DNA of 64,000 nucleotides from contig CAZOXU010000002.1 in assembly GCA_964583975.1 (NCBI GenBank), positions 48,667-112,666 on the forward strand. Direction: 5' to 3'. This document shows positions 53,437-62,260 of the stretch, one piece after another (the stretch's first letter is position 1; every line of letters starts with the position of its first letter). A program made the translations under genes and the position numbers. The notes beneath the pieces were generated by a model. It searched no databases, was not told the origin of the DNA, and saw only the letters and a list, made by a program, of their open reading frames with translations. The DNA is from an uncultured Planctomycetales bacterium (lineage in GTDB: Bacteria > Omnitrophota > Gorgyraeia > Zapsychrales > Fredricksoniimonadaceae).

Positions 53437-55269
53437 TCAATCAGGGTATTTAAACATCGAGCGTCCAGATTTAGCGGCATCACTCCAATCATATTGCGTC
53501 TCTAATAAGAAAATTGTTTGAATTAAAGCCAGGTGTGAATACCCTTGTGGAAAGTTTCCTGTCAAGCGCCCTGAAGCGGTTTCTATATCCTCTGAAAAAA
53601 GGCCAAATCTGTTAGCATGGGACAGTATTTTATCAAGCATATGGTGAGCTTGTTGTTCATGTCCAGTTAAATAGAGAGCATTGATCATCCAAAACGTGCA
53701 TACAATAAATGCGTTTTCCGGAACACCAAATTCATCGGATGCTTTATACCGCATTGTAAAGCCACCTTTAGTTAAATCCTTATAAGTTTTAAAGACTGTT
53801 TTAATTATGCGTGGATCTTTTTTATCTAAAAATCCATAATGAAGCATCAAGAGATTCGAAGCATCTAAATCTTTACTTCCATAAAACATTACAAAGCTTT
53901 GCTTCTCTTCATCCCACCCATTCTTAAGGATATCCTCTTTGATCTCTTGGGCTACTTTAAAATACCCTGGTGCGTATTGGTCTTTACCGATAAATTGAGC
54001 AATCTTAGCAGCTCTGTCCATAGCGACCCAACTCATCATTTTAGAATGAACAAAATGTTTCATAGGGCCACGATGTTCCCATATACCGCAATCTGGTTCT
54101 TTCCATTTAGCTTCTACCATTTTTGCTAATGATCGCACCATTGTCCAGATTTCTTCATTAATCAATAGATCATTTCTAAAATCAACTACAAACGATGTAT
54201 AAATAGTTTCAATGAGTTGCCCGTACACATCATTTTGTTTCTGCTTATAAGCAGCGTTACCAATACGCACAGGTCGGGAATTTTCATAACCATTTAAATG
54301 ATCCAAAACCTTTTCTTCAAGCTTCTCTTCCCCATTGATACCGTACATAACAGAAATTTTATAATCCTTAAGAAGCATCCTGTTAAGAATAAAATTAATA
54401 TACCTTAGAGAGGTTCTGGCATGCCCCATACGAGCATACAAATCAATAATCATTGACGCATCTCTAATCCAACAGTAACGGTAATCCCAATTGCGGTCCT
54501 TCCCCATAATTTCAGGCAAAGATGTGGTTGGAGCAGCAATAACCGCACCAGTTCTTTGAAACATCAAAAGTTTAAGAGTAATAATAGAACGAATAACTAG
54601 TTCTTTATATTTTTCTGGAATCTCCGTCCGATAGATCCAATACAACCAATAACTTTTTGTTTTTTCATATTCCAAGAAAATCTTGTCTTTTGTGATCGAT
54701 TCAATTTTCTCATGATATGATAAAAGAAAATAAGACGATTCTTTCAACTCAATTTCTCGATGATGGACAATATCTTCCATATTCAGGTTAGTATAAAGAT
54801 AATAACTATTGTATTCCCCCTCAACAGTAGTGATTTTTAAATATTCGGAATGGATTGCTAGCTTAGCTTCACTTGCTCCGTAATTAGGCCTTGGATTTAA
54901 CTCAACGGTAATAATAGGTTTTCCGCAGACCAAATAAACACTTCGATGTATTTCCGCTGGACAATAGACTTGTGCATCGTTAGTATCGAATCGAGGCATA
55001 TAATCCCTGACTTCAAAAATCCCGTCTTTGGTTTTAAAAACTGTTTTTAAGATAGGCGTTCGATGCAAATAAGACTGTTCAACACTAACAATATCCTTAG
55101 CCCAGATTTTAAAATAACCTCCTTTTTGTTTATCTAGAATACGACCAAATACGGATGAAGAGTCAAAAAAAGGAAGACACAGCCAATCAATAGAACAGTC
55201 TTCATTGACCAGCGCTGCGCTAGTACAATTTCCAATAATGGCATAATTATAATTAGATGGAATTTTCAA
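53437..55269 (-). CDS. Glycoside hydrolase family 15 protein (glucoamylase-like; putative trehalase).
   Basis: 610 aa. A GH15 (alpha/alpha)6 catalytic domain. It is clustered with otsA and otsB. Confidence 0.75.
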   Translation of the reverse strand: MKIPSNYNYAIIGNCTSAALVNEDCSIDWLCLPFFDSSSVFGRILDKQKGGYFKIWAKDIVSVEQSYLHRTPILKTVFKTKDGIFEVRDYMPRFDTNDAQVYCPAEIHRSVYLVCGKPIITVELNPRPNYGASEAKLAIHSEYLKITTVEGEYNSYYLYTNLNMEDIVHHREIELKESSYFLLSYHEKIESITKDKIFLEYEKTKSYWLYWIYRTEIPEKYKELVIRSIITLKLLMFQRTGAVIAAPTTSLPEIMGKDRNWDYRYCWIRDASMIIDLYARMGHARTSLRYINFILNRMLLKDYKISVMYGINGEEKLEEKVLDHLNGYENSRPVRIGNAAYKQKQNDVYGQLIETIYTSFVVDFRNDLLINEEIWTMVRSLAKMVEAKWKEPDCGIWEHRGPMKHFVHSKMMSWVAMDRAAKIAQFIGKDQYAPGYFKVAQEIKEDILKNGWDEEKQSFVMFYGSKDLDASNLLMLHYGFLDKKDPRIIKTVFKTYKDLTKGGFTMRYKASDEFGVPENAFIVCTFWMINALYLTGHEQQAHHMLDKILSHANRFGLFSEDIETASGRLTGNFPQGYSHLALIQTIFLLETQYDWSDAAKSGRSMFKYPD

Positions 55270-55275
55270 AAGATT

Positions 55276-56061
55276 TCACCTCACACAATATTCTAGAAAC
55301 TCAACAACTTCATCAGTATTATTTAAATAATAGTGGGCATGAGAATGTTTGGTATGCCCTACATTTATAGTGATTCCTACGTTTTTCAAAGCTAAAAAAG
55401 CATCTTCATCTGTTGTGTCATCACCGATATAAATTGGAAGAACTGGTTGTTTTGCTTTAATATTCTGATATTTCTCTAAAATCCATGTTACAACCTTACC
55501 TTTATCCCAATCTAAAGGAGACCTTATTTCGAAAACTTTCTTGCCCAGTGTAATTCGAACTTCTTTTTTAGAAGAAAATTCTTTTGTAATCTTTTTAAGA
55601 AATGTCTTAAAAATAGATTCATCCTTTGGGTTAAGCAACCTGTAATGCACACTTAAACCAAATCCTTTATCTTCCACAAAGGCCCCTTTATAAAATACCA
55701 ACTCTTTAGTAATCTTCCATTTTAAATGCTCTAAGATTTCTCTAAATCGTGAAAAAGAGGAATTCTTAAAACCAATATCTATCCCTTCAATTTCAAGACC
55801 ATGATTGCCTATGTAAACAATCTTGTCAACCCCAACTAATTGTTTTACGTCGGACATAACCCTACCACTAATAATAAAAAGATGTATCCGCTTGTTGTCT
55901 GACAACCTATTAAGAATATGCCGCATTCTCAAAGAAAGAATAGCCAACTCTGGTCTCTCAACAATAGGTGTTAACGTACCGTCATAATCCAAAAAAAGCA
56001 TTATTTGACTACTTTTTAATCGTTTTTTTAAAATATCCAGTTCTTTAATAAGATATACCAT
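55276..56061 (-). CDS. otsB: Trehalose-6-phosphate phosphatase (HAD-IIB).
   Basis: MLFLDYDGTLTPIV (the DxDGT motif); 261 aa. Confidence 0.8.
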   Translation of the reverse strand: MVYLIKELDILKKRLKSSQIMLFLDYDGTLTPIVERPELAILSLRMRHILNRLSDNKRIHLFIISGRVMSDVKQLVGVDKIVYIGNHGLEIEGIDIGFKNSSFSRFREILEHLKWKITKELVFYKGAFVEDKGFGLSVHYRLLNPKDESIFKTFLKKITKEFSSKKEVRITLGKKVFEIRSPLDWDKGKVVTWILEKYQNIKAKQPVLPIYIGDDTTDEDAFLALKNVGITINVGHTKHSHAHYYLNNTDEVVEFLEYCVR

Positions 56062-56081
56062 AATTAAAATCTTAATAGTTG

Positions 56082-57200
56082 CTACGAGACTCTCAATTTC
56101 TGTCCCAATGAAGAATGAGTATTAAGCATCTCGTTCTTTAGGTATAAAGTTTGTGTAGGATAAGCAAATTCAATTCTTTCTTTCTCAAACTCCCGCATGA
56201 TGGCTAAATTGATCGTCTGCTGTTTATCCATATAGACATTGTAATCTGAGCTTAATACATAATAGACGATCTCATAAACAAGGGCAGAATCCCCAAAACT
56301 CTGAAAATGGACCCGATCCATCTTCACCTCAGCCTTTTCTAATATATTCTGAATAATTTGAGGAATTCTTTCTACTAACTTTAATGGAGTCTGATATGTC
56401 ACCCCCACCTTAAAAGCAATTCGACGTGATTGCATACGCTTATAGTTCTTTACGCGACCTTTAGTCAAATCTGAATTTGATAAAATCAATTGTTCACCAG
56501 AAAGACTTAAAATTCGCGTTGTTTTCAATCCAATATGCTGAACCGTTCCCATGCAATCATCAATAATAATGAAATCCCCAATCTCAAATGGTTTATCCAA
56601 ATAGATCGACAAAGCGCTAAAAGCATCTCCCAACACAGCTTGGGACGCCATTGCAACAGCAACGCCCCCAATTCCAATACCGGCTATTAAAGAAGTAATA
56701 TTAACACCCAAATTATCTAGAATAAAAACCGCACCAAGAACCCATAATCCCCATTTAATTACCCATACCACACTTTTAACCAGAGCTTGAGATGATGGAT
56801 TGTCAGAACCAATGCGCTTAAGCAAGGTTTTATTCACACTATATTGGATAATTTCTTGAAACAATAAAATGGCACGAATTGTTACAACCAAGACTGCAGC
56901 ATATTTAATTAATGAACGTACTGCTTCTGGTAGGACAAGCGATGATACGGCTATATACAATGAAACAACAGTGATAACTGGCCACCCAATCTGGGAAAAC
57001 AAGCTTACAATGAAATCATCAAAATCAGAAATCGTCCTTGCCGCCAATTTCCCTAAATATTTAATAACAAATCTTTTAGCCATAGATAGACCCACAAGTA
57101 ATACAAGAAATGTCAGAAGGGAAACGACATAATCTTCAACCGTATTTTTAAATACAGTAATTTTTAGTACGACATTAAAATGATCCATAAACGTCATCAT
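56082..57200 (-). CDS. Mechanosensitive ion channel, MscS family.
   Basis: TM helices followed by the MscS beta-domain (GDFIIIDDCMGTVQHIGLKTTRI). The likely start is at 57200. Confidence 0.8.
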   Translation of the reverse strand: MMTFMDHFNVVLKITVFKNTVEDYVVSLLTFLVLLVGLSMAKRFVIKYLGKLAARTISDFDDFIVSLFSQIGWPVITVVSLYIAVSSLVLPEAVRSLIKYAAVLVVTIRAILLFQEIIQYSVNKTLLKRIGSDNPSSQALVKSVVWVIKWGLWVLGAVFILDNLGVNITSLIAGIGIGGVAVAMASQAVLGDAFSALSIYLDKPFEIGDFIIIDDCMGTVQHIGLKTTRILSLSGEQLILSNSDLTKGRVKNYKRMQSRRIAFKVGVTYQTPLKLVERIPQIIQNILEKAEVKMDRVHFQSFGDSALVYEIVYYVLSSDYNVYMDKQQTINLAIMREFEKERIEFAYPTQTLYLKNEMLNTHSSLGQKLRVS

Positions 57201-59458
57201 GCGGCCACCTCCTCCCCTTCCTTGCGAACTTGGGTCAATTGACCAACCAATTCTCCTGCCCAACGGTAAATATTGTTACTTTTTACCACCTCTCTCATTT
57301 GTTTCATACGTTGCGCTTGTTCTTCTTTAGGCATTTCCAACGCTGTATAAATTGCTTTTGAAGTTTGACCTATGTCATAGGGGTTAACGATTAACGAATC
57401 ATGCAATTCGCGTGCAGCCCCAGTAAATTGACTTAAAATTAACACTCCCTGCTCATCGTTACGGGCTGCAATAAATTCTTTAGCTACTAAATTCATCCCA
57501 TCATGCAATGATGTAACCATACAGACATCCGCCGCCTTATAAAATGGCAGTATATCCTGATGACTGTGATGCTTCATTAACAAAAGTATCGGCTGCCAAT
57601 TCTTCTTTTTAAATTTTGTATTAATTCGTTCAACTTCTTTGACTATTTCATCGATAAATTCTTTATATTTCGGAATCATGGTACGGCTAGGAGCACCTAA
57701 TTCAACGAATGTAAACTTCCCTCTAAAAAATGAATGAGTATCTAACAGGTTCTCTATAGCACGAAACCGTTCCAAAATACCTTTGGTATAATCCAATCGA
57801 TCTACCCCAACTCCAAGTAATTGAGCCTGAATACCATACTTCTTAAGAAGCATTTGCTTGTCTTCTAATGATTTAACTTCCGTTTCATCCGTAGAATCAA
57901 AACTTATACTAATAGGAAATGGTTTTATAAAAGTTGTGTGCCCTTCACGATTAATAGCAAAATGTTCATAATCAATACGTGATTCCAAGAATCGATCCAC
58001 GGATTCAATAAAATTATTACAATGAAACTGAGTATGGAATCCTAGAATATCAGCACCCAGCATTCCTTGCAGCAATTCCCTCCTCCATGGGCAAATGCCA
58101 AACGACTCCGGGTTAGGCCAAGGAATATGCCAAAATATGGCTATTTTCGCATCAGGCTTTAAAGCTTTAATCATGCTTGGTAACAAAGCAAAATGGTAAT
58201 CTTGGATTAAAATAAAAGGATTTGAAATCCCTTCTAATTCTTCTGCGACAGCCTGAGCAAATTTTTTGTTAACTGCTTTATAATCTTCCCAATCCTTAGC
58301 TCTAAAAATAGGTCTCGTATGTGCGATATGGCATAATGGCCATAGTCCTTCATTAGAAAATCCTGAATAAAATCCTTCCTCTAAATCTTTATCTATCCAA
58401 ACTCGGCGTAAGGTATATTTTGGCTCTTCCGGAGGAACCTTGATTCTGTCATTCTTATCAACTGTTTCACGATCAGCATTACCGCTGCCTTGGGCGATCC
58501 ATGTCCCCCCACAAGCATTGAGCACTGGTTCAAGAGCAGTGACTAAACCACTAGCAGGCACAATACATTCAATTTTGTTATCAGTCTTGATATGCATGTA
58601 AGGTTCTCTGTTGGAAACCACAAAAAGCGGACGATCTTCCAGCTTTAAACGAACAAATTCCTTCAACCTCTGAGGCGTCCAACGGGATTCTGAAGTATAC
58701 CGAAGACGGGCTTCTTCTTCAGCAGCTGCTCTGGCCATATCCAAGCTTTTAGCCATTTGAGTAATCTCTAGGGCCAAAGGTCCCAATAAAAGTTGTTGTT
58801 TAGCATTTAAAGGCCTGGAAGATTCACCTTTGCGAATTCTTCGTATCCACTCTGTAGTTCTTTTTATAGGAATCATGACATTGAAATAGATAACAATAAA
58901 TGTAGTCAATGAAATCAATAATGCCTGAATGAGGGCTCTCCAAAAGCTATTGATTAAAAGTCGTTGAACACGTTCACTAATAAAATCAACATCATAAAAT
59001 AATGTCAAAACATGAGTTGTTTTATCCCCCACTGTTAACGGAACCGCATAAGCATATAGCGATGCTTTCCCTAAATTAAAAAAACTCCCATAATCTGTCC
59101 CTAAACGCTCTACTTCCTGTATTCCTTCAAACAAAACTCTAGTATTAGACTCTAATTGAGGGCTAAAATCTTTTGAGGTAACTATCATATTCTCTCTAGT
59201 ATCATAAATATTGATACCAACAAGCCTTTCGCGATTAGAAAATCTATCCACTATTCGTTGTAAACTTTGAATATTCCCCTCAGCTGCTAACAACGGTTCA
59301 ACCGAAACCTTTAAACTATCTGCAATAAAACTAGCTCTTTTCTCTAGTTCATTCTTAAGACGATCTTGCTCTTGTTGAGCCTGCCAGTAAGAAAAAGCAA
59401 ACGCGACCATAGCAACAATGGATACCAACGATAGAATTAATCGTAAAGTTATTTTCAT
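57197..59458 (-). CDS. otsA: Trehalose-6-phosphate synthase (GT20) with an N-terminal TM-periplasmic-TM-HAMP-like sensor extension.
   Basis: The GT20 core starts at LFVVSNREPY. The N-terminal extension of about 300 aa has two TM helices flanking a roughly 150-aa extracytoplasmic region, then an amphipathic linker. The ATG is at 59456-59458, preceded by SD AGGAG. Confidence 0.8.
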   Translation of the reverse strand: MKITLRLILSLVSIVAMVAFAFSYWQAQQEQDRLKNELEKRASFIADSLKVSVEPLLAAEGNIQSLQRIVDRFSNRERLVGINIYDTRENMIVTSKDFSPQLESNTRVLFEGIQEVERLGTDYGSFFNLGKASLYAYAVPLTVGDKTTHVLTLFYDVDFISERVQRLLINSFWRALIQALLISLTTFIVIYFNVMIPIKRTTEWIRRIRKGESSRPLNAKQQLLLGPLALEITQMAKSLDMARAAAEEEARLRYTSESRWTPQRLKEFVRLKLEDRPLFVVSNREPYMHIKTDNKIECIVPASGLVTALEPVLNACGGTWIAQGSGNADRETVDKNDRIKVPPEEPKYTLRRVWIDKDLEEGFYSGFSNEGLWPLCHIAHTRPIFRAKDWEDYKAVNKKFAQAVAEELEGISNPFILIQDYHFALLPSMIKALKPDAKIAIFWHIPWPNPESFGICPWRRELLQGMLGADILGFHTQFHCNNFIESVDRFLESRIDYEHFAINREGHTTFIKPFPISISFDSTDETEVKSLEDKQMLLKKYGIQAQLLGVGVDRLDYTKGILERFRAIENLLDTHSFFRGKFTFVELGAPSRTMIPKYKEFIDEIVKEVERINTKFKKKNWQPILLLMKHHSHQDILPFYKAADVCMVTSLHDGMNLVAKEFIAARNDEQGVLILSQFTGAARELHDSLIVNPYDIGQTSKAIYTALEMPKEEQAQRMKQMREVVKSNNIYRWAGELVGQLTQVRKEGEEVAA

Positions 59459-59480: not shown

Positions 59481-59565
59481 CTAAAAATAAAAAGACCACC
59501 ACTGGTTTTTAAACCAGATGGCGGCCCGACCATCAACTTATCCTCCAGGATAAAATCTAATCCTG
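59481..59565 (-). promoter_or_regulatory. Conserved leader element, copy A, in the otsA 5' leader. It has a P1 hairpin, a 22-nt box and a terminator-like hairpin with a U tract.
   Basis: Minus-sense CAGGAUUAGAUUUUAUCCUG ... UUGAUGGUCGGGCCGCCAUCUG GUUUAAAAACCAG UGGUGGUCUUUUUAUUUUU. The 22-nt box is identical to copy B at 61818-61839. Confidence 0.5.
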
Positions 59566-59598
59566 AACCCTTTTAATCCTGTTCTAGATAAATCATAA

Positions 59599-60213
59599 TT
59601 ATCGCGTCATAATTCCTTTTTTGAATACGCTAAACATATCCATAAGCCAACTCTTCTTTAAAGTAAAATTATAACCACTCAAACTCCAGTGAGTAATGGT
59701 AGATTGAATCATCCCCCAAAAGATAAAACCTGTCGCATCCACAGCAAGATCCTTACGAAAAATGCCTAACCTTACACCTTGGGTTAAAATAGACTCAATG
59801 GTATTTAAATATTTCTCAACAACCCCAAACATTTCTCTACGAAGAGTTTTATCATGCAAATTTAAAGACTCATTAATTAGGATAAACGATACCCCCTTGC
59901 GTTGTTCCGCATAGGATAGATGCGCAAAGAAAATATTTTCTAGTTTCTGTAGAGGATCAGATTCTTGATTAGCAGCATTCTTAATGGCACCCAAGAGGGT
60001 CTCTTCAATATCTTCAATTAGAAGACTGAGAATTTTCTTCTTACTCTTAAAATGTCTATACAATGCGCCATCGGTGATGTCAAGATCTGCCGCAATTCCT
60101 CGAACAGTTAAATTCTTAATTCCATCGGCAATAATAATCCGCCTTGCGGCATTAACAATTTCCTGTTGACGAACAGTCCTTTTGTGATGCTGAATTTCTA
60201 TTGTCGATTCCAT
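59599..60213 (-). CDS. TetR-family transcriptional regulator.
   Basis: N-terminal HTH (ARRIIIADGIKNLTVRGIAADLDITDGALYRHFKSKKKIL); 204 aa. Confidence 0.8.
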   Translation of the reverse strand: MESTIEIQHHKRTVRQQEIVNAARRIIIADGIKNLTVRGIAADLDITDGALYRHFKSKKKILSLLIEDIEETLLGAIKNAANQESDPLQKLENIFFAHLSYAEQRKGVSFILINESLNLHDKTLRREMFGVVEKYLNTIESILTQGVRLGIFRKDLAVDATGFIFWGMIQSTITHWSLSGYNFTLKKSWLMDMFSVFKKGIMTR

Positions 60214-60502: not shown

Positions 60503-61774
60503 TTAACCTAAAAACCGATACAATACTAAATAAGAGCCAACTCCAGCAAAATAACCTAATAGAGCTGGGAATGACGCTTTTCTTAAATACCAAATAAAAT
60601 TGATCTTCTCTATCCCCATAACTACCACACCTGCTGCTGATCCAATAATAAGAACACTTCCACCTGTCCCAACACTAAAAGCCAAAAGCTCCCACAACTT
60701 GGAATCCATGGGAAAATGCGCCAGATCATACATTCCCATGGTAGCAGCTGTTAGAGGAACATTGTCCACAATCGCAGATAGAAGCCCCAGGGCGACTGCA
60801 ATGATGTCTTTATTATTAAGTGTCGTATCCATAAACAATGCCAATCTGGACAATAATCCGGATGTTTCAAGAGCAGATACTGCCAGCAAAACAGATAGAA
60901 AGAATAGAATACTAGACATGTCTATATGATTAAGCGCATGGGGAACTTTTAAATGCTCCTTAGTCTTATGAATGATATCTGTTAATAACCATAATAAACC
61001 CAAACCAAAAAGCACCCCTATGAATGGCGGAAGACCCGTCACTCCCTTAAAAATCGGTACAAGTATCAATGAGCCTAACCCAAGATAAAATACCCTTTTA
61101 GTTCCAACAACCTTTTCATCATTTGTTGAATCAATTCTTGGAATTTCTCCATCCTTCATCGTCAATGTAAAATAAATTAAAGGGACAACCATGGCAACGA
61201 CACTTGGAATAAAAAGCATTTGAATAATCCTTGATGCGCTGACCTGTCCGCCAATCCATAACATGGTGGTGGTAACATCCCCTATGGGAGACCAAGCGCC
61301 GCCAGCATTTGCAGCAATAATAATCATACTGCCAAAAATAAGACGATCATTCCTATCGCTAATAAGACGAGATAGCAGAGAAACCATAACAATTGAGGTT
61401 GTTAAATTATCTAGAACGGCTGATAAAAAAAACGTGCTCAGTGAGATCACCCATAACAACGATCTCTTCTTTCTTACCTTCATGATATTTGTAACAACCT
61501 GAAATCCATTGTGCGTTTCCATTAATCGCACAATAGTCATAGCTCCAATCAAAAAGAATACAATCTGAGCCGTGCTCTCTAAATGATGAGAAAGACTATC
61601 TACGACACCATGTATATTTCCTCCGGTCAGATGTAGATGCTCTTCAGCTAGAAGAACCCAACAAATAACCGCAGTTATCATGGCTGAGGAAGCTTTATTT
61701 ATACCGATGACATGCTCCATCGCCATTGCCCCATACCCAAGCACAAACACAATCATAATCAAATTCTCAAACAT
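60503..61774 (-). CDS. NhaD/ArsB-superfamily Na+/H+ antiporter (NhaD-type).
   Basis: About 12 TM helices. It is similar to NhaD/citrate-transporter-fold permeases. The ATG is at 61772-61774 (MFENLIMIV...). The longer ORF-track start is a TTG and overlaps the leader terminator. Confidence 0.7.
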   Translation of the reverse strand: MFENLIMIVFVLGYGAMAMEHVIGINKASSAMITAVICWVLLAEEHLHLTGGNIHGVVDSLSHHLESTAQIVFFLIGAMTIVRLMETHNGFQVVTNIMKVRKKRSLLWVISLSTFFLSAVLDNLTTSIVMVSLLSRLISDRNDRLIFGSMIIIAANAGGAWSPIGDVTTTMLWIGGQVSASRIIQMLFIPSVVAMVVPLIYFTLTMKDGEIPRIDSTNDEKVVGTKRVFYLGLGSLILVPIFKGVTGLPPFIGVLFGLGLLWLLTDIIHKTKEHLKVPHALNHIDMSSILFFLSVLLAVSALETSGLLSRLALFMDTTLNNKDIIAVALGLLSAIVDNVPLTAATMGMYDLAHFPMDSKLWELLAFSVGTGGSVLIIGSAAGVVVMGIEKINFIWYLRKASFPALLGYFAGVGSYLVLYRFLG

Positions 61775-61785
61775 AAATATCCTTT

Positions 61786-61864
61786 CCCAAAAAAAGCCGT
61801 CACCTGATTTTTTCAATCAGATGGCGGCCCGACCATCAAAAAAACCTCTGGAGAGAAACTCCAG
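61786..61864 (-). promoter_or_regulatory. Conserved leader element, copy B, in the nhaD 5' leader.
   Basis: Minus-sense CUGGAGUUUCUCUCCAG ... UUGAUGGUCGGGCCGCCAUCUG AUUGAAAAAAUCAGGUG ACGGCUUUUUUU. The box is identical to copy A. The terminator hairpin covaries. Confidence 0.5.
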
Positions 61865-61992
61865 ACCCAAATCATATTAACAAATAAGGATTAATATGCA
61901 ATAACACTTTGGATTCTAATAATTTAATTTCACCTACTTCAATGGAGATTAATTATAAACGGAAGAATAAGTTGAAAATTGACACAAAGACA

Positions 61993-62030
61993 TAAAAAAT
62001 CCCCACAACAGCATTGCTATTGCGGGGATT
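61993..62030 (-). terminator. Rho-independent terminator downstream of tRNA-Ser.
   Basis: Minus-sense AATCCCCGCAATAGCAATGCTGTTGTGGGGATTTTTT. Confidence 0.5.
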
Positions 62031-62159
62031 GCGTATCTCTCACCGTCGATAAACGGTAATACAACTGGCGGTCTACTTCGCTTCAATACTTTTGTGTTGA
62101 AGCTTCGTAGAACCAGTTACTTCGAAGCTCAAACATAAAAATTTTTGAGCGAAGAAGAA

Positions 62160-62248
62160 CGGAGAAGGAGAGATTCGAACTCTCGAGGCGCCTTACGACG
62201 CCCACACGCTTTCCAAGCGTGCGCATTCAACCACTCTGCCACCTCTCC
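62160..62248 (-). tRNA. tRNA-Ser (anticodon GGA).
   Basis: Minus-sense GGAGAGGTGGCAGAGTGGTTGAATGCGCACGCTTGGAAAGCGTGTGGGCGTCGTAAGGCGCCTCGAGAGTTCGAATCTCTCCTTCTCCG. It has a long variable arm, anticodon loop UUGGAAA and T loop TTCGAAT. Confidence 0.85.
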
Positions 62249-62260
62249 AAAAAGATTTCT

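Follow-up and report, generated by a model that had tools for sequence, protein, structure and literature searches.

Two nhaA-I family riboswitch elements in the otsA and nhaD leaders of an uncultured Omnitrophota-like genome

The window, which is the whole 64,000-nucleotide stretch of DNA analysed here, possesses two non-coding leaders of like design, one ahead of a gene for trehalose-6-phosphate synthase (otsA; copy A) and the other ahead of a gene for a Na+/H+ antiporter (nhaD; copy B) (Table 1). Behind otsA lie a gene for an MscS-type channel, the trehalose-phosphatase gene otsB and a trehalase-like gene, and the four are presumed from their tight spacing to be co-transcribed; the true start of mscS is probably just past the otsA stop. 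Between the two leaders is a gene for a TetR-family regulator, which is not part of the riboswitch; its transcripts would run into copy A. Strand bias in the window is extreme: among ORFs of 150 aa or more, 46 of 48 lie on the minus strand.

Table 1. Elements and genes of the otsA and nhaD loci, in positions of the window.
Feature	Position	Strand	Evidence or detail
Copy A aptamer (nhaA-I / Li+-I-type)	59516..59570	-	Rfam RF03057; aptamer-only fold P1 + P2
Copy A GGGU	59567-59570	-	RF03057 alignment
Copy A P1	59560-59566 / 59545-59551	-	AGG at 59542-59544
Copy A P2	5′ arm GAUGGU 59529-59534; loop CGGGCC 59523-59528; 3′ arm GCCAUC 59517-59522	-	
Copy A intrinsic terminator	59484..59527	-	stem 59493-59527, 15 bp, one bulge
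otsA, 753 aa	57197..59458	-	first gene after copy A; Pfam PF00982 4.3e-120, NCBIfam OtsA models
Rest of presumed operon after otsA	53437..57263	-	Pfam and NCBIfam
mscS (MscS-type channel)	56082-57263 (mechanical ORF)	-	
otsB (trehalose-phosphatase)	55276-56061	-	
GH15 trehalase-like gene	53437-55269	-	
TetR-family regulator gene (tetR)	59599..60213	-	Pfam TetR_N and TetR_C; between the two riboswitch units
Copy B aptamer	61819..61868	-	Rfam RF03057; fold
Copy B aptamer parts	GGGU 61865-61868; P1 61859-61864 / 61848-61853; AGG 61845-61847; P2 and loop 61820-61837	-	
Copy B intrinsic terminator	61787..61830	-	stem 61794-61830, then U tract
nhaD (NhaD-family Na+/H+ antiporter), 423 aa	60503..61774	-	downstream of copy B
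Strong 15-bp terminator of tRNA-Ser	61998-62030	-	just upstream of copy B
tRNA-Ser(GGA) gene	62159-62249	-	upstream of copy B

The antiporter is identified by NCBIfam models TIGR00775 (NhaD, 2.1e-118) and NF038006 (above cut-off) and by Pfam CitMHS, and its ATG at 61774 is preceded by the Shine-Dalgarno sequence AAAGGA. A single unannotated Logan contig of 2.7 kb was all that matched the exact NhaD protein. In OtsA, residues 279-742 form the glycosyltransferase family 20 (GT20) trehalose-6-phosphate synthase domain. Its start is the ATG at 59458, served by a GAGGAG Shine-Dalgarno sequence, from which its relatives align at residue 1. A mechanical ORF beginning at TTG 59536, which would set part of the copy A leader inside coding sequence, was rejected on the basis of this alignment.

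The N-terminal extension of OtsA is of some 275 aa (residues 1-275; 58630-59458, minus strand) and contains a transmembrane helix. It has a weak likeness to the sensor/transmembrane N-terminus of histidine kinases (NCBIfam WalK 2.5e-8, residues 2-251), with Pfam ArlS_N and sCache_4 matches below threshold. Riboswitch-linked OtsA proteins of about 745-753 aa with this extension are also found at seven metagenome and relative loci (L001, L002, L015, L052, L056, L078 and L084). Such a fusion of a membrane-anchored, sensor-like domain with trehalose-6-phosphate synthase is unusual, and it recurs across metagenome loci.

Upstream of copy B is a tRNA-Ser gene with a strong terminator of its own, and copy B therefore needs its own promoter within the ~130 nt before its GGGU. 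A promoter scan gave weak and uninformative matches only, the best for copy A (9/12) lying inside the 3′ end of tetR; the sigma-70-type consensus that was used may not fit Omnitrophota. A sub-threshold Rfam match to the sRNA sX4 (34.8 bits against a gathering score of 70) overlaps the tRNA-Ser gene and is probably caused by the tRNA.

The feature that first drew attention to the leaders is a 22-nt box, TTGATGGTCGGGCCGCCATCTG, which is present in exactly two copies in the window, at 59515-59536 and 61818-61839 of the minus strand. None of 100 dinucleotide-preserving shuffles contained a match to it with up to three mismatches permitted, which bears out the claims of a preliminary description of this DNA that the otsA and nhaD leaders share a 22/22-identical box and that this identity is beyond chance. 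On the minus strand both copies have the same order of parts, namely GGGU, the P1 hairpin, AGG, a short U/A-rich linker and the box, followed on its 3′ side by a hairpin, a U tract, a Shine-Dalgarno sequence and ATG. The box is predicted to fold as GAUGG(U)-CGGGCC-(G)CCAUC, and the hairpin upstream of it keeps its structure with a different sequence in each copy (UCAGGAU/AUCCUGG in A, CUGGAG/CUCCAG in B), both as had been described. The hairpin and U tract after the box are likewise present; however, the stems are 15-16 bp long rather than the 7-9 bp proposed, as they begin at GGGCCGCC, within the box. The span originally given to the copy A element (59481-59565) is too short at its 5′ end, the conserved GGGU reaching 59570, 5 nt outside.

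When the whole window was searched with cmscan against Rfam 15, four matches passed the gathering thresholds, these being two tRNAs and two copies of the nhaA-I RNA (RF03057, riboswitch). Both nhaA-I matches take in the full model, positions 1-55 of 55, with 51.6 bits for copy A and 53.1 bits for copy B against a gathering score of 37 bits. In the RF03057 alignment P1 corresponds to the upstream hairpin, and P2 and its loop to the box. Both copies carry the consensus nucleotides of the family: the 5′ GGGU, the AGG after P1 and GGUCGGGCCGCC, which forms P2 and its loop. The 22/22 identity is explained by the box being an aptamer core close to the family consensus (cGaUGGUCGGGCCGCCAuCg), and a recent duplication is not needed. 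The conserved pairs at the base of P1, G-C and C-G (consensus GGGU-GC...GC-AGG), are absent from both copies, copy A having U.G then C-G and copy B having C-G then U-A. With scores that stay above the gathering threshold, this deviating base is a mark of a subgroup within nhaA-I by sequence and not grounds for exclusion from the family.

An Rfam search had been proposed in the preliminary description, which named nhaA-I and the DUF1646 motif (Na+-I) among the relevant models. The former matches both leaders; the latter matches neither, with no hit to its covariance model at E ≤ 1 on 3 kb nor at E ≤ 10 on 86 nt, and membership of Na+-I was rejected on these permissive values. The functional reading offered there, of a cis-regulatory leader with a terminator/antiterminator platform that is probably an ion-sensing riboswitch for salt and osmotic genes, is supported. 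Its alternative of a protein-mediated attenuator found no support, and its suggestion of a novel or unannotated RNA gives way to the full-length, above-threshold matches of both copies to RF03057, which also rule out a novel riboswitch class. Both elements are very probably transcriptional ON switches of the nhaA-I family (RF03057; Li+-I / Na+-II of White et al., 2022). The nhaA-I family is curated and has been validated by experiment, and both this kind of RNA and its association with otsA, nhaD and mscS were already known from it.

The nhaA-I motif was discovered by comparative genomics (Weinberg et al., 2017, PMC5737381) and was experimentally validated as an RNA sensor, the Li+-I riboswitch (White et al., 2022, PMC9646797). 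The majority of its members are Li+-selective ON switches (Li+-I), chiefly upstream of nhaA, and the motif was reported from the Alpha-, Beta-, Gamma- and Deltaproteobacteria (PMC9646797). Rare variants with intrinsic terminators were reported in Deltaproteobacteria only, before genes of unknown function; the name Na+-II was given to the terminator-bearing variant of D. propionicus, which responds to Na+ (PMC9646797). Genes following the 944 nhaA-I RNAs of that study include otsA (16), nhaD (6), putative citrate transporter (5), glycosyl transferase (5) and mscS (3) (PMC9646797, Supplementary Table I), and an nhaD leader with three aptamers, a terminator after each, was also described (PMC9646797). 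The authors raised the possibility that the otsA-linked members might be Na+-sensing variants in the osmotic response (PMC9646797). With regard to nhaA-I class riboswitches in Omnitrophota, a search of the literature found nothing relevant.

When the aptamer alone is folded, each copy forms P1 and P2. In the full leader, the minimum free energy structure of both copies consists of P1 and the 15-16 bp terminator hairpin, with the U tract next to it. Of the terminators folded alone, that of copy A has an energy of -22.4 kcal/mol with z = -6.8, and that of copy B an energy of -20.7 kcal/mol with z = -3.8. The stem of copy A reads GGGCCGCCA(U)CUGGUU / AACCAGUGGUGGUCU, then UUUUUAUUUU, and that of copy B reads GGGCCG(C)CAUCUGAUU / AAUCAGGUG(A)CGGCUU, the inner part of which was also picked up by a terminator scan. 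The 5′ arm of the terminator, GGGCCGCCAUCUG..., is made up of the 3′ half of the conserved loop and the entire 3′ arm of P2, and its formation consumes GGGCCGCCAUC. The aptamer P2 and the terminator are therefore mutually exclusive.

A switching mechanism can be proposed from these folds. P1 and P2 would form in the nascent leader, with the conserved nucleotides GGGU, AGG and (U)CGGGCC(G) joining them. At a high intracellular level of a small alkali cation the bound aptamer would keep hold of the loop GGCC as well as the 3′ arm of P2, the terminator of 15-16 bp would be blocked and RNA polymerase would read through. With copy B this would lead to expression of nhaD and export of Na+/Li+, and with copy A to expression of otsA-mscS-otsB-trehalase, for osmoprotection by trehalose and its turnover. 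When the cation is low, the far more stable terminator would win, with transcription stopping at the U tract. The ON logic of both copies is inferred from the validated D. propionicus homologue, which has the same layout.

A search with the OtsA protein matched five genomic loci. The MAGs with the closest relatives (83%, 80%, 76% and 72% identity) bear the label Candidatus Omnitrophota or 'uncultured Planctomycetales'. Locus L001 possesses both riboswitches and the same gene order of nhaD, tetR, otsA, mscS, otsB and trehalase; L002 has the otsA copy and shares the otsA-mscS-otsB-trehalase order, while L004 has one copy that runs off the contig end. The P1 sequences of copies A and B, the two copies of L001 and that of L002 differ, and all still pair. 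No nhaA-I element is present within the 442 nt upstream of otsA at L003 (L003:1-442; 76% OtsA identity). This control is therefore dispensable, and riboswitch and operon make-up vary among close relatives. At L003, mscS and otsB are also absent between otsA and the trehalase gene. A Candidatus Paceibacterota MAG (L005) encodes a long OtsA of 49% identity followed by otsB, with no nhaA-I element upstream.

Beyond these relatives, at least 120 metagenome contigs contain the 16-nt core ATGGTCGGGCCGCCAT, according to a scan whose pattern confined the sample to U-type loops and one P2 sequence. Among the matches listed and the relatives, 126 occurrences of the core were examined, and 95 of these have a P1-like hairpin correctly placed. 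A terminator pairing with the P2 3′ arm follows in 38 of the 95, mostly on low-GC contigs (among the matches listed). The 38 distinct metagenome P1 stems among the matches listed show 3-5 pair types per position. In 37 distinct terminators, also among the matches listed, the part pairing with the invariant CCGCCAU is constant, and the distal positions +3 to +6 each show 4-6 pair types, these pairs being defined by per-sequence folding in a set already selected for terminator presence. The variety of pair types at these distal positions points to covariation maintaining the hairpin. The preliminary description had named a lack of recurrence or of covariation as grounds for refuting it; the core recurs, and the P1 and terminator stems covary.

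The first downstream ORF of at least 100 aa was called for 25 terminator-type elements among the matches listed. These first genes include GT20/OtsA (7), MscS (3), Band_7 (3), CitMHS/NhaD (2) and OmpR-type regulators (2), as well as DUF1646, a P-type ATPase and a Na+/H+ exchanger, and otsA is the second gene in several further loci. It is worth mentioning that L019:457-580 (plus strand) has two tandem nhaA-I aptamers ~90 nt apart, the first then followed by a terminator-like hairpin, and that L025 has two nhaA-I copies ~900 nt apart (2587 and 3501, plus strand). Both arrangements are consistent with the tandem arrangements in the literature.

Regarding the cation that is sensed, we lean towards Na+, or Na+ and Li+ together, as the ligand of copies A and B. 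The principal alternative is that both are strictly Li+-selective Li+-I riboswitches and that the operons serve lithium detoxification and not a sodium or osmotic response; this is possible, though we consider it the less probable reading. It draws on construct position 54 of the D. propionicus RNA, which is C in the Na+-II RNA and U in most nhaA-I RNAs (PMC9646797). From the wild-type and M4 templates (PMC9646797, Supplementary Table II) this position maps to the nucleotide closing the P2 loop, which reads GC-CGGGCC-GC in Na+-II and GU-CGGGCC-GC elsewhere. Copies A and B have U (U.G) at the equivalent position, as do most nhaA-I RNAs and the validated Li+-I aptamers. In addition, NhaD-type antiporters also transport Li+, and Li+ alters trehalose metabolism in eukaryotes, as noted by White et al. 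(PMC9646797). However, Na+ still elicits a response from the C54U mutant of the Na+-II RNA, as do Li+ and NH4+ (PMC9646797), and U at this position thus does not exclude Na+ sensing.

The base of P1 also stands against strict Li+ selectivity. The first pair is C-G in copy B and U.G in copy A, and it is C-G in the Na+-II RNA, whereas all three published Li+-I constructs and the Rfam consensus have G-C. In a sample of 85 aptamers (L001-L125 and the window, among the matches listed) a terminator accompanies none of the 30 elements with a G-C base but 28 of the 38 with a C-G base, or 32 of 44 when C-G and U.G are taken together; NhaA homologues follow G-C-base elements only (6/6) and OtsA homologues only those with a C-G or U.G base, all of these correlations being confounded by GC content and phylogeny and offered as a lead rather than a result. 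The pair that opens P1 after GGGU may be a specificity determinant, or its distribution may be only an effect of GC content or phylogeny. Two further points against the Li+-only reading are the gene set of otsA, mscS, otsB, DUF1646, Band_7 and P-type ATPase, which looks like an osmotic or Na+ response, and the terminator platform of the two copies, which is as in Na+-II.

A broader proposal can be made from the same sample, namely that terminator-bearing nhaA-I RNAs with a C-G or U.G P1 base and a loop U form a distinct specificity subgroup sensing Na+, or Na+ and Li+; we give this about an even chance. Low-GC uncultured lineages such as Omnitrophota commonly have RNAs of this description, which are tied to otsA/mscS/nhaD osmoadaptation operons. 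If the proposal is true, Na+-II-like sensing would extend beyond the Deltaproteobacteria and beyond the single C54 signature, and the P1 base would be a second specificity determinant. This would be a refinement and not a new kind of system, given that Na+ sensing by otsA-linked members has already been suggested (PMC9646797).

It was also considered whether the hairpin and U tract of copy A are merely a constitutive terminator of tetR, a scenario already entertained in the preliminary description; the likeness to copy B would then arise from duplication and not from regulation. The stretch from the tetR stop (59599) to otsA has no second terminator, and tetR transcripts must therefore end at the copy A hairpin or read through it. 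However, copy B has the same terminator design and is preceded not by a protein-coding gene but by tRNA-Ser with its own terminator, and the scenario was rejected on this ground. Moreover, each of the 38 aptamer-bearing leaders from other contigs (among the matches listed) has a terminator that pairs with the 3′ arm of P2, and the layout of copy A matches the validated D. propionicus switch. As a full account of copy A this is very unlikely. The terminator of copy A may well double as the tetR terminator at low ligand, which is compatible with its role as part of a riboswitch.

Least probable of all, and hardly credible, is that the box is a DNA operator (inverted repeat GATGG-N8-CCATC) bound by the TetR protein encoded between the copies, the hairpins being incidental: the box is partly palindromic and tetR adjoins the motif in the closest relatives L001, L002 and L126 too, but the same core is present in at least 120 unrelated metagenome contigs, always in one orientation to the downstream gene and with covarying P1 and terminator stems, the box region fits an RNA covariance model, which scores structure, nhaA-I RNAs are experimentally proven sensors (PMC9646797), and no TetR homologue was found in the examined flanks of eight otsA-linked loci (L015, L046, L052, L056, L078, L084, L086 and L122). 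In the flanks examined a TetR homologue lies beside the motif in the nearest relatives only, while the motif itself is widespread and has RNA-type covariation, and the operator was rejected in favour of the riboswitch.

The main value of the two nhaA-I elements is one of annotation, as they place otsA-mscS-otsB-trehalase and nhaD under the predicted direct RNA control of an alkali-cation riboswitch and point to the way in which an uncultured lineage links the synthesis of compatible solutes to ion stress. What is known of the nhaA-I family is left unchanged by them. They add two small increments, the first being nhaA-I instances in an Omnitrophota-like genome, beyond the Proteobacteria of White et al. 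2022 (PMC9646797), and the second being the combination of a Li+-I loop nucleotide with three traits of the Na+-sensing variant, namely its P1 base, its terminator platform and an osmotic gene set. Copies A and B would also be convenient test RNAs for the nucleotides that set selectivity for Li+ versus Na+.

When compared with known systems, the Na+-I riboswitch (DUF1646 motif) has a similar two-hairpin architecture, terminator platforms and an overlapping regulon of nhaD, DUF1646 and Na+ transport genes (PMC9646797). However, copies A and B have no match to the DUF1646 model, and their P2 loop and lower P1 follow the nhaA-I consensus. With Li+-I / nhaA-I they share the two-hairpin fold, GGGU, AGG and GGUCGGGCCGCC, down to the U at the close of the P2 loop, and the published genes otsA, nhaD/'citrate transporter' and mscS are the same as those found here. 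Most Li+-I members are thought to occlude the ribosome-binding site, and they precede nhaA and come from Proteobacteria. Copies A and B differ from these in having intrinsic terminators, a P1 that starts with C-G or U.G instead of G-C, and an Omnitrophota-like genome. The Na+-II riboswitch, known from the D. propionicus 'hypo' RNA, has the same fold with a P1 start of GGGU-C...G-AGG, and in predicted folds its terminator 5′ arm starts at the same GGGCCGC in the P2 loop and in the same register as in copies A and B. Its logic is ON, as is likewise predicted for the two copies. The defining feature of Na+-II is C at position 54 (loop CCGGGCC), where copies A and B have U. Na+-II has been published only from Deltaproteobacteria, before genes of unknown function, whereas copies A and B precede otsA and nhaD and have their relatives in Omnitrophota.
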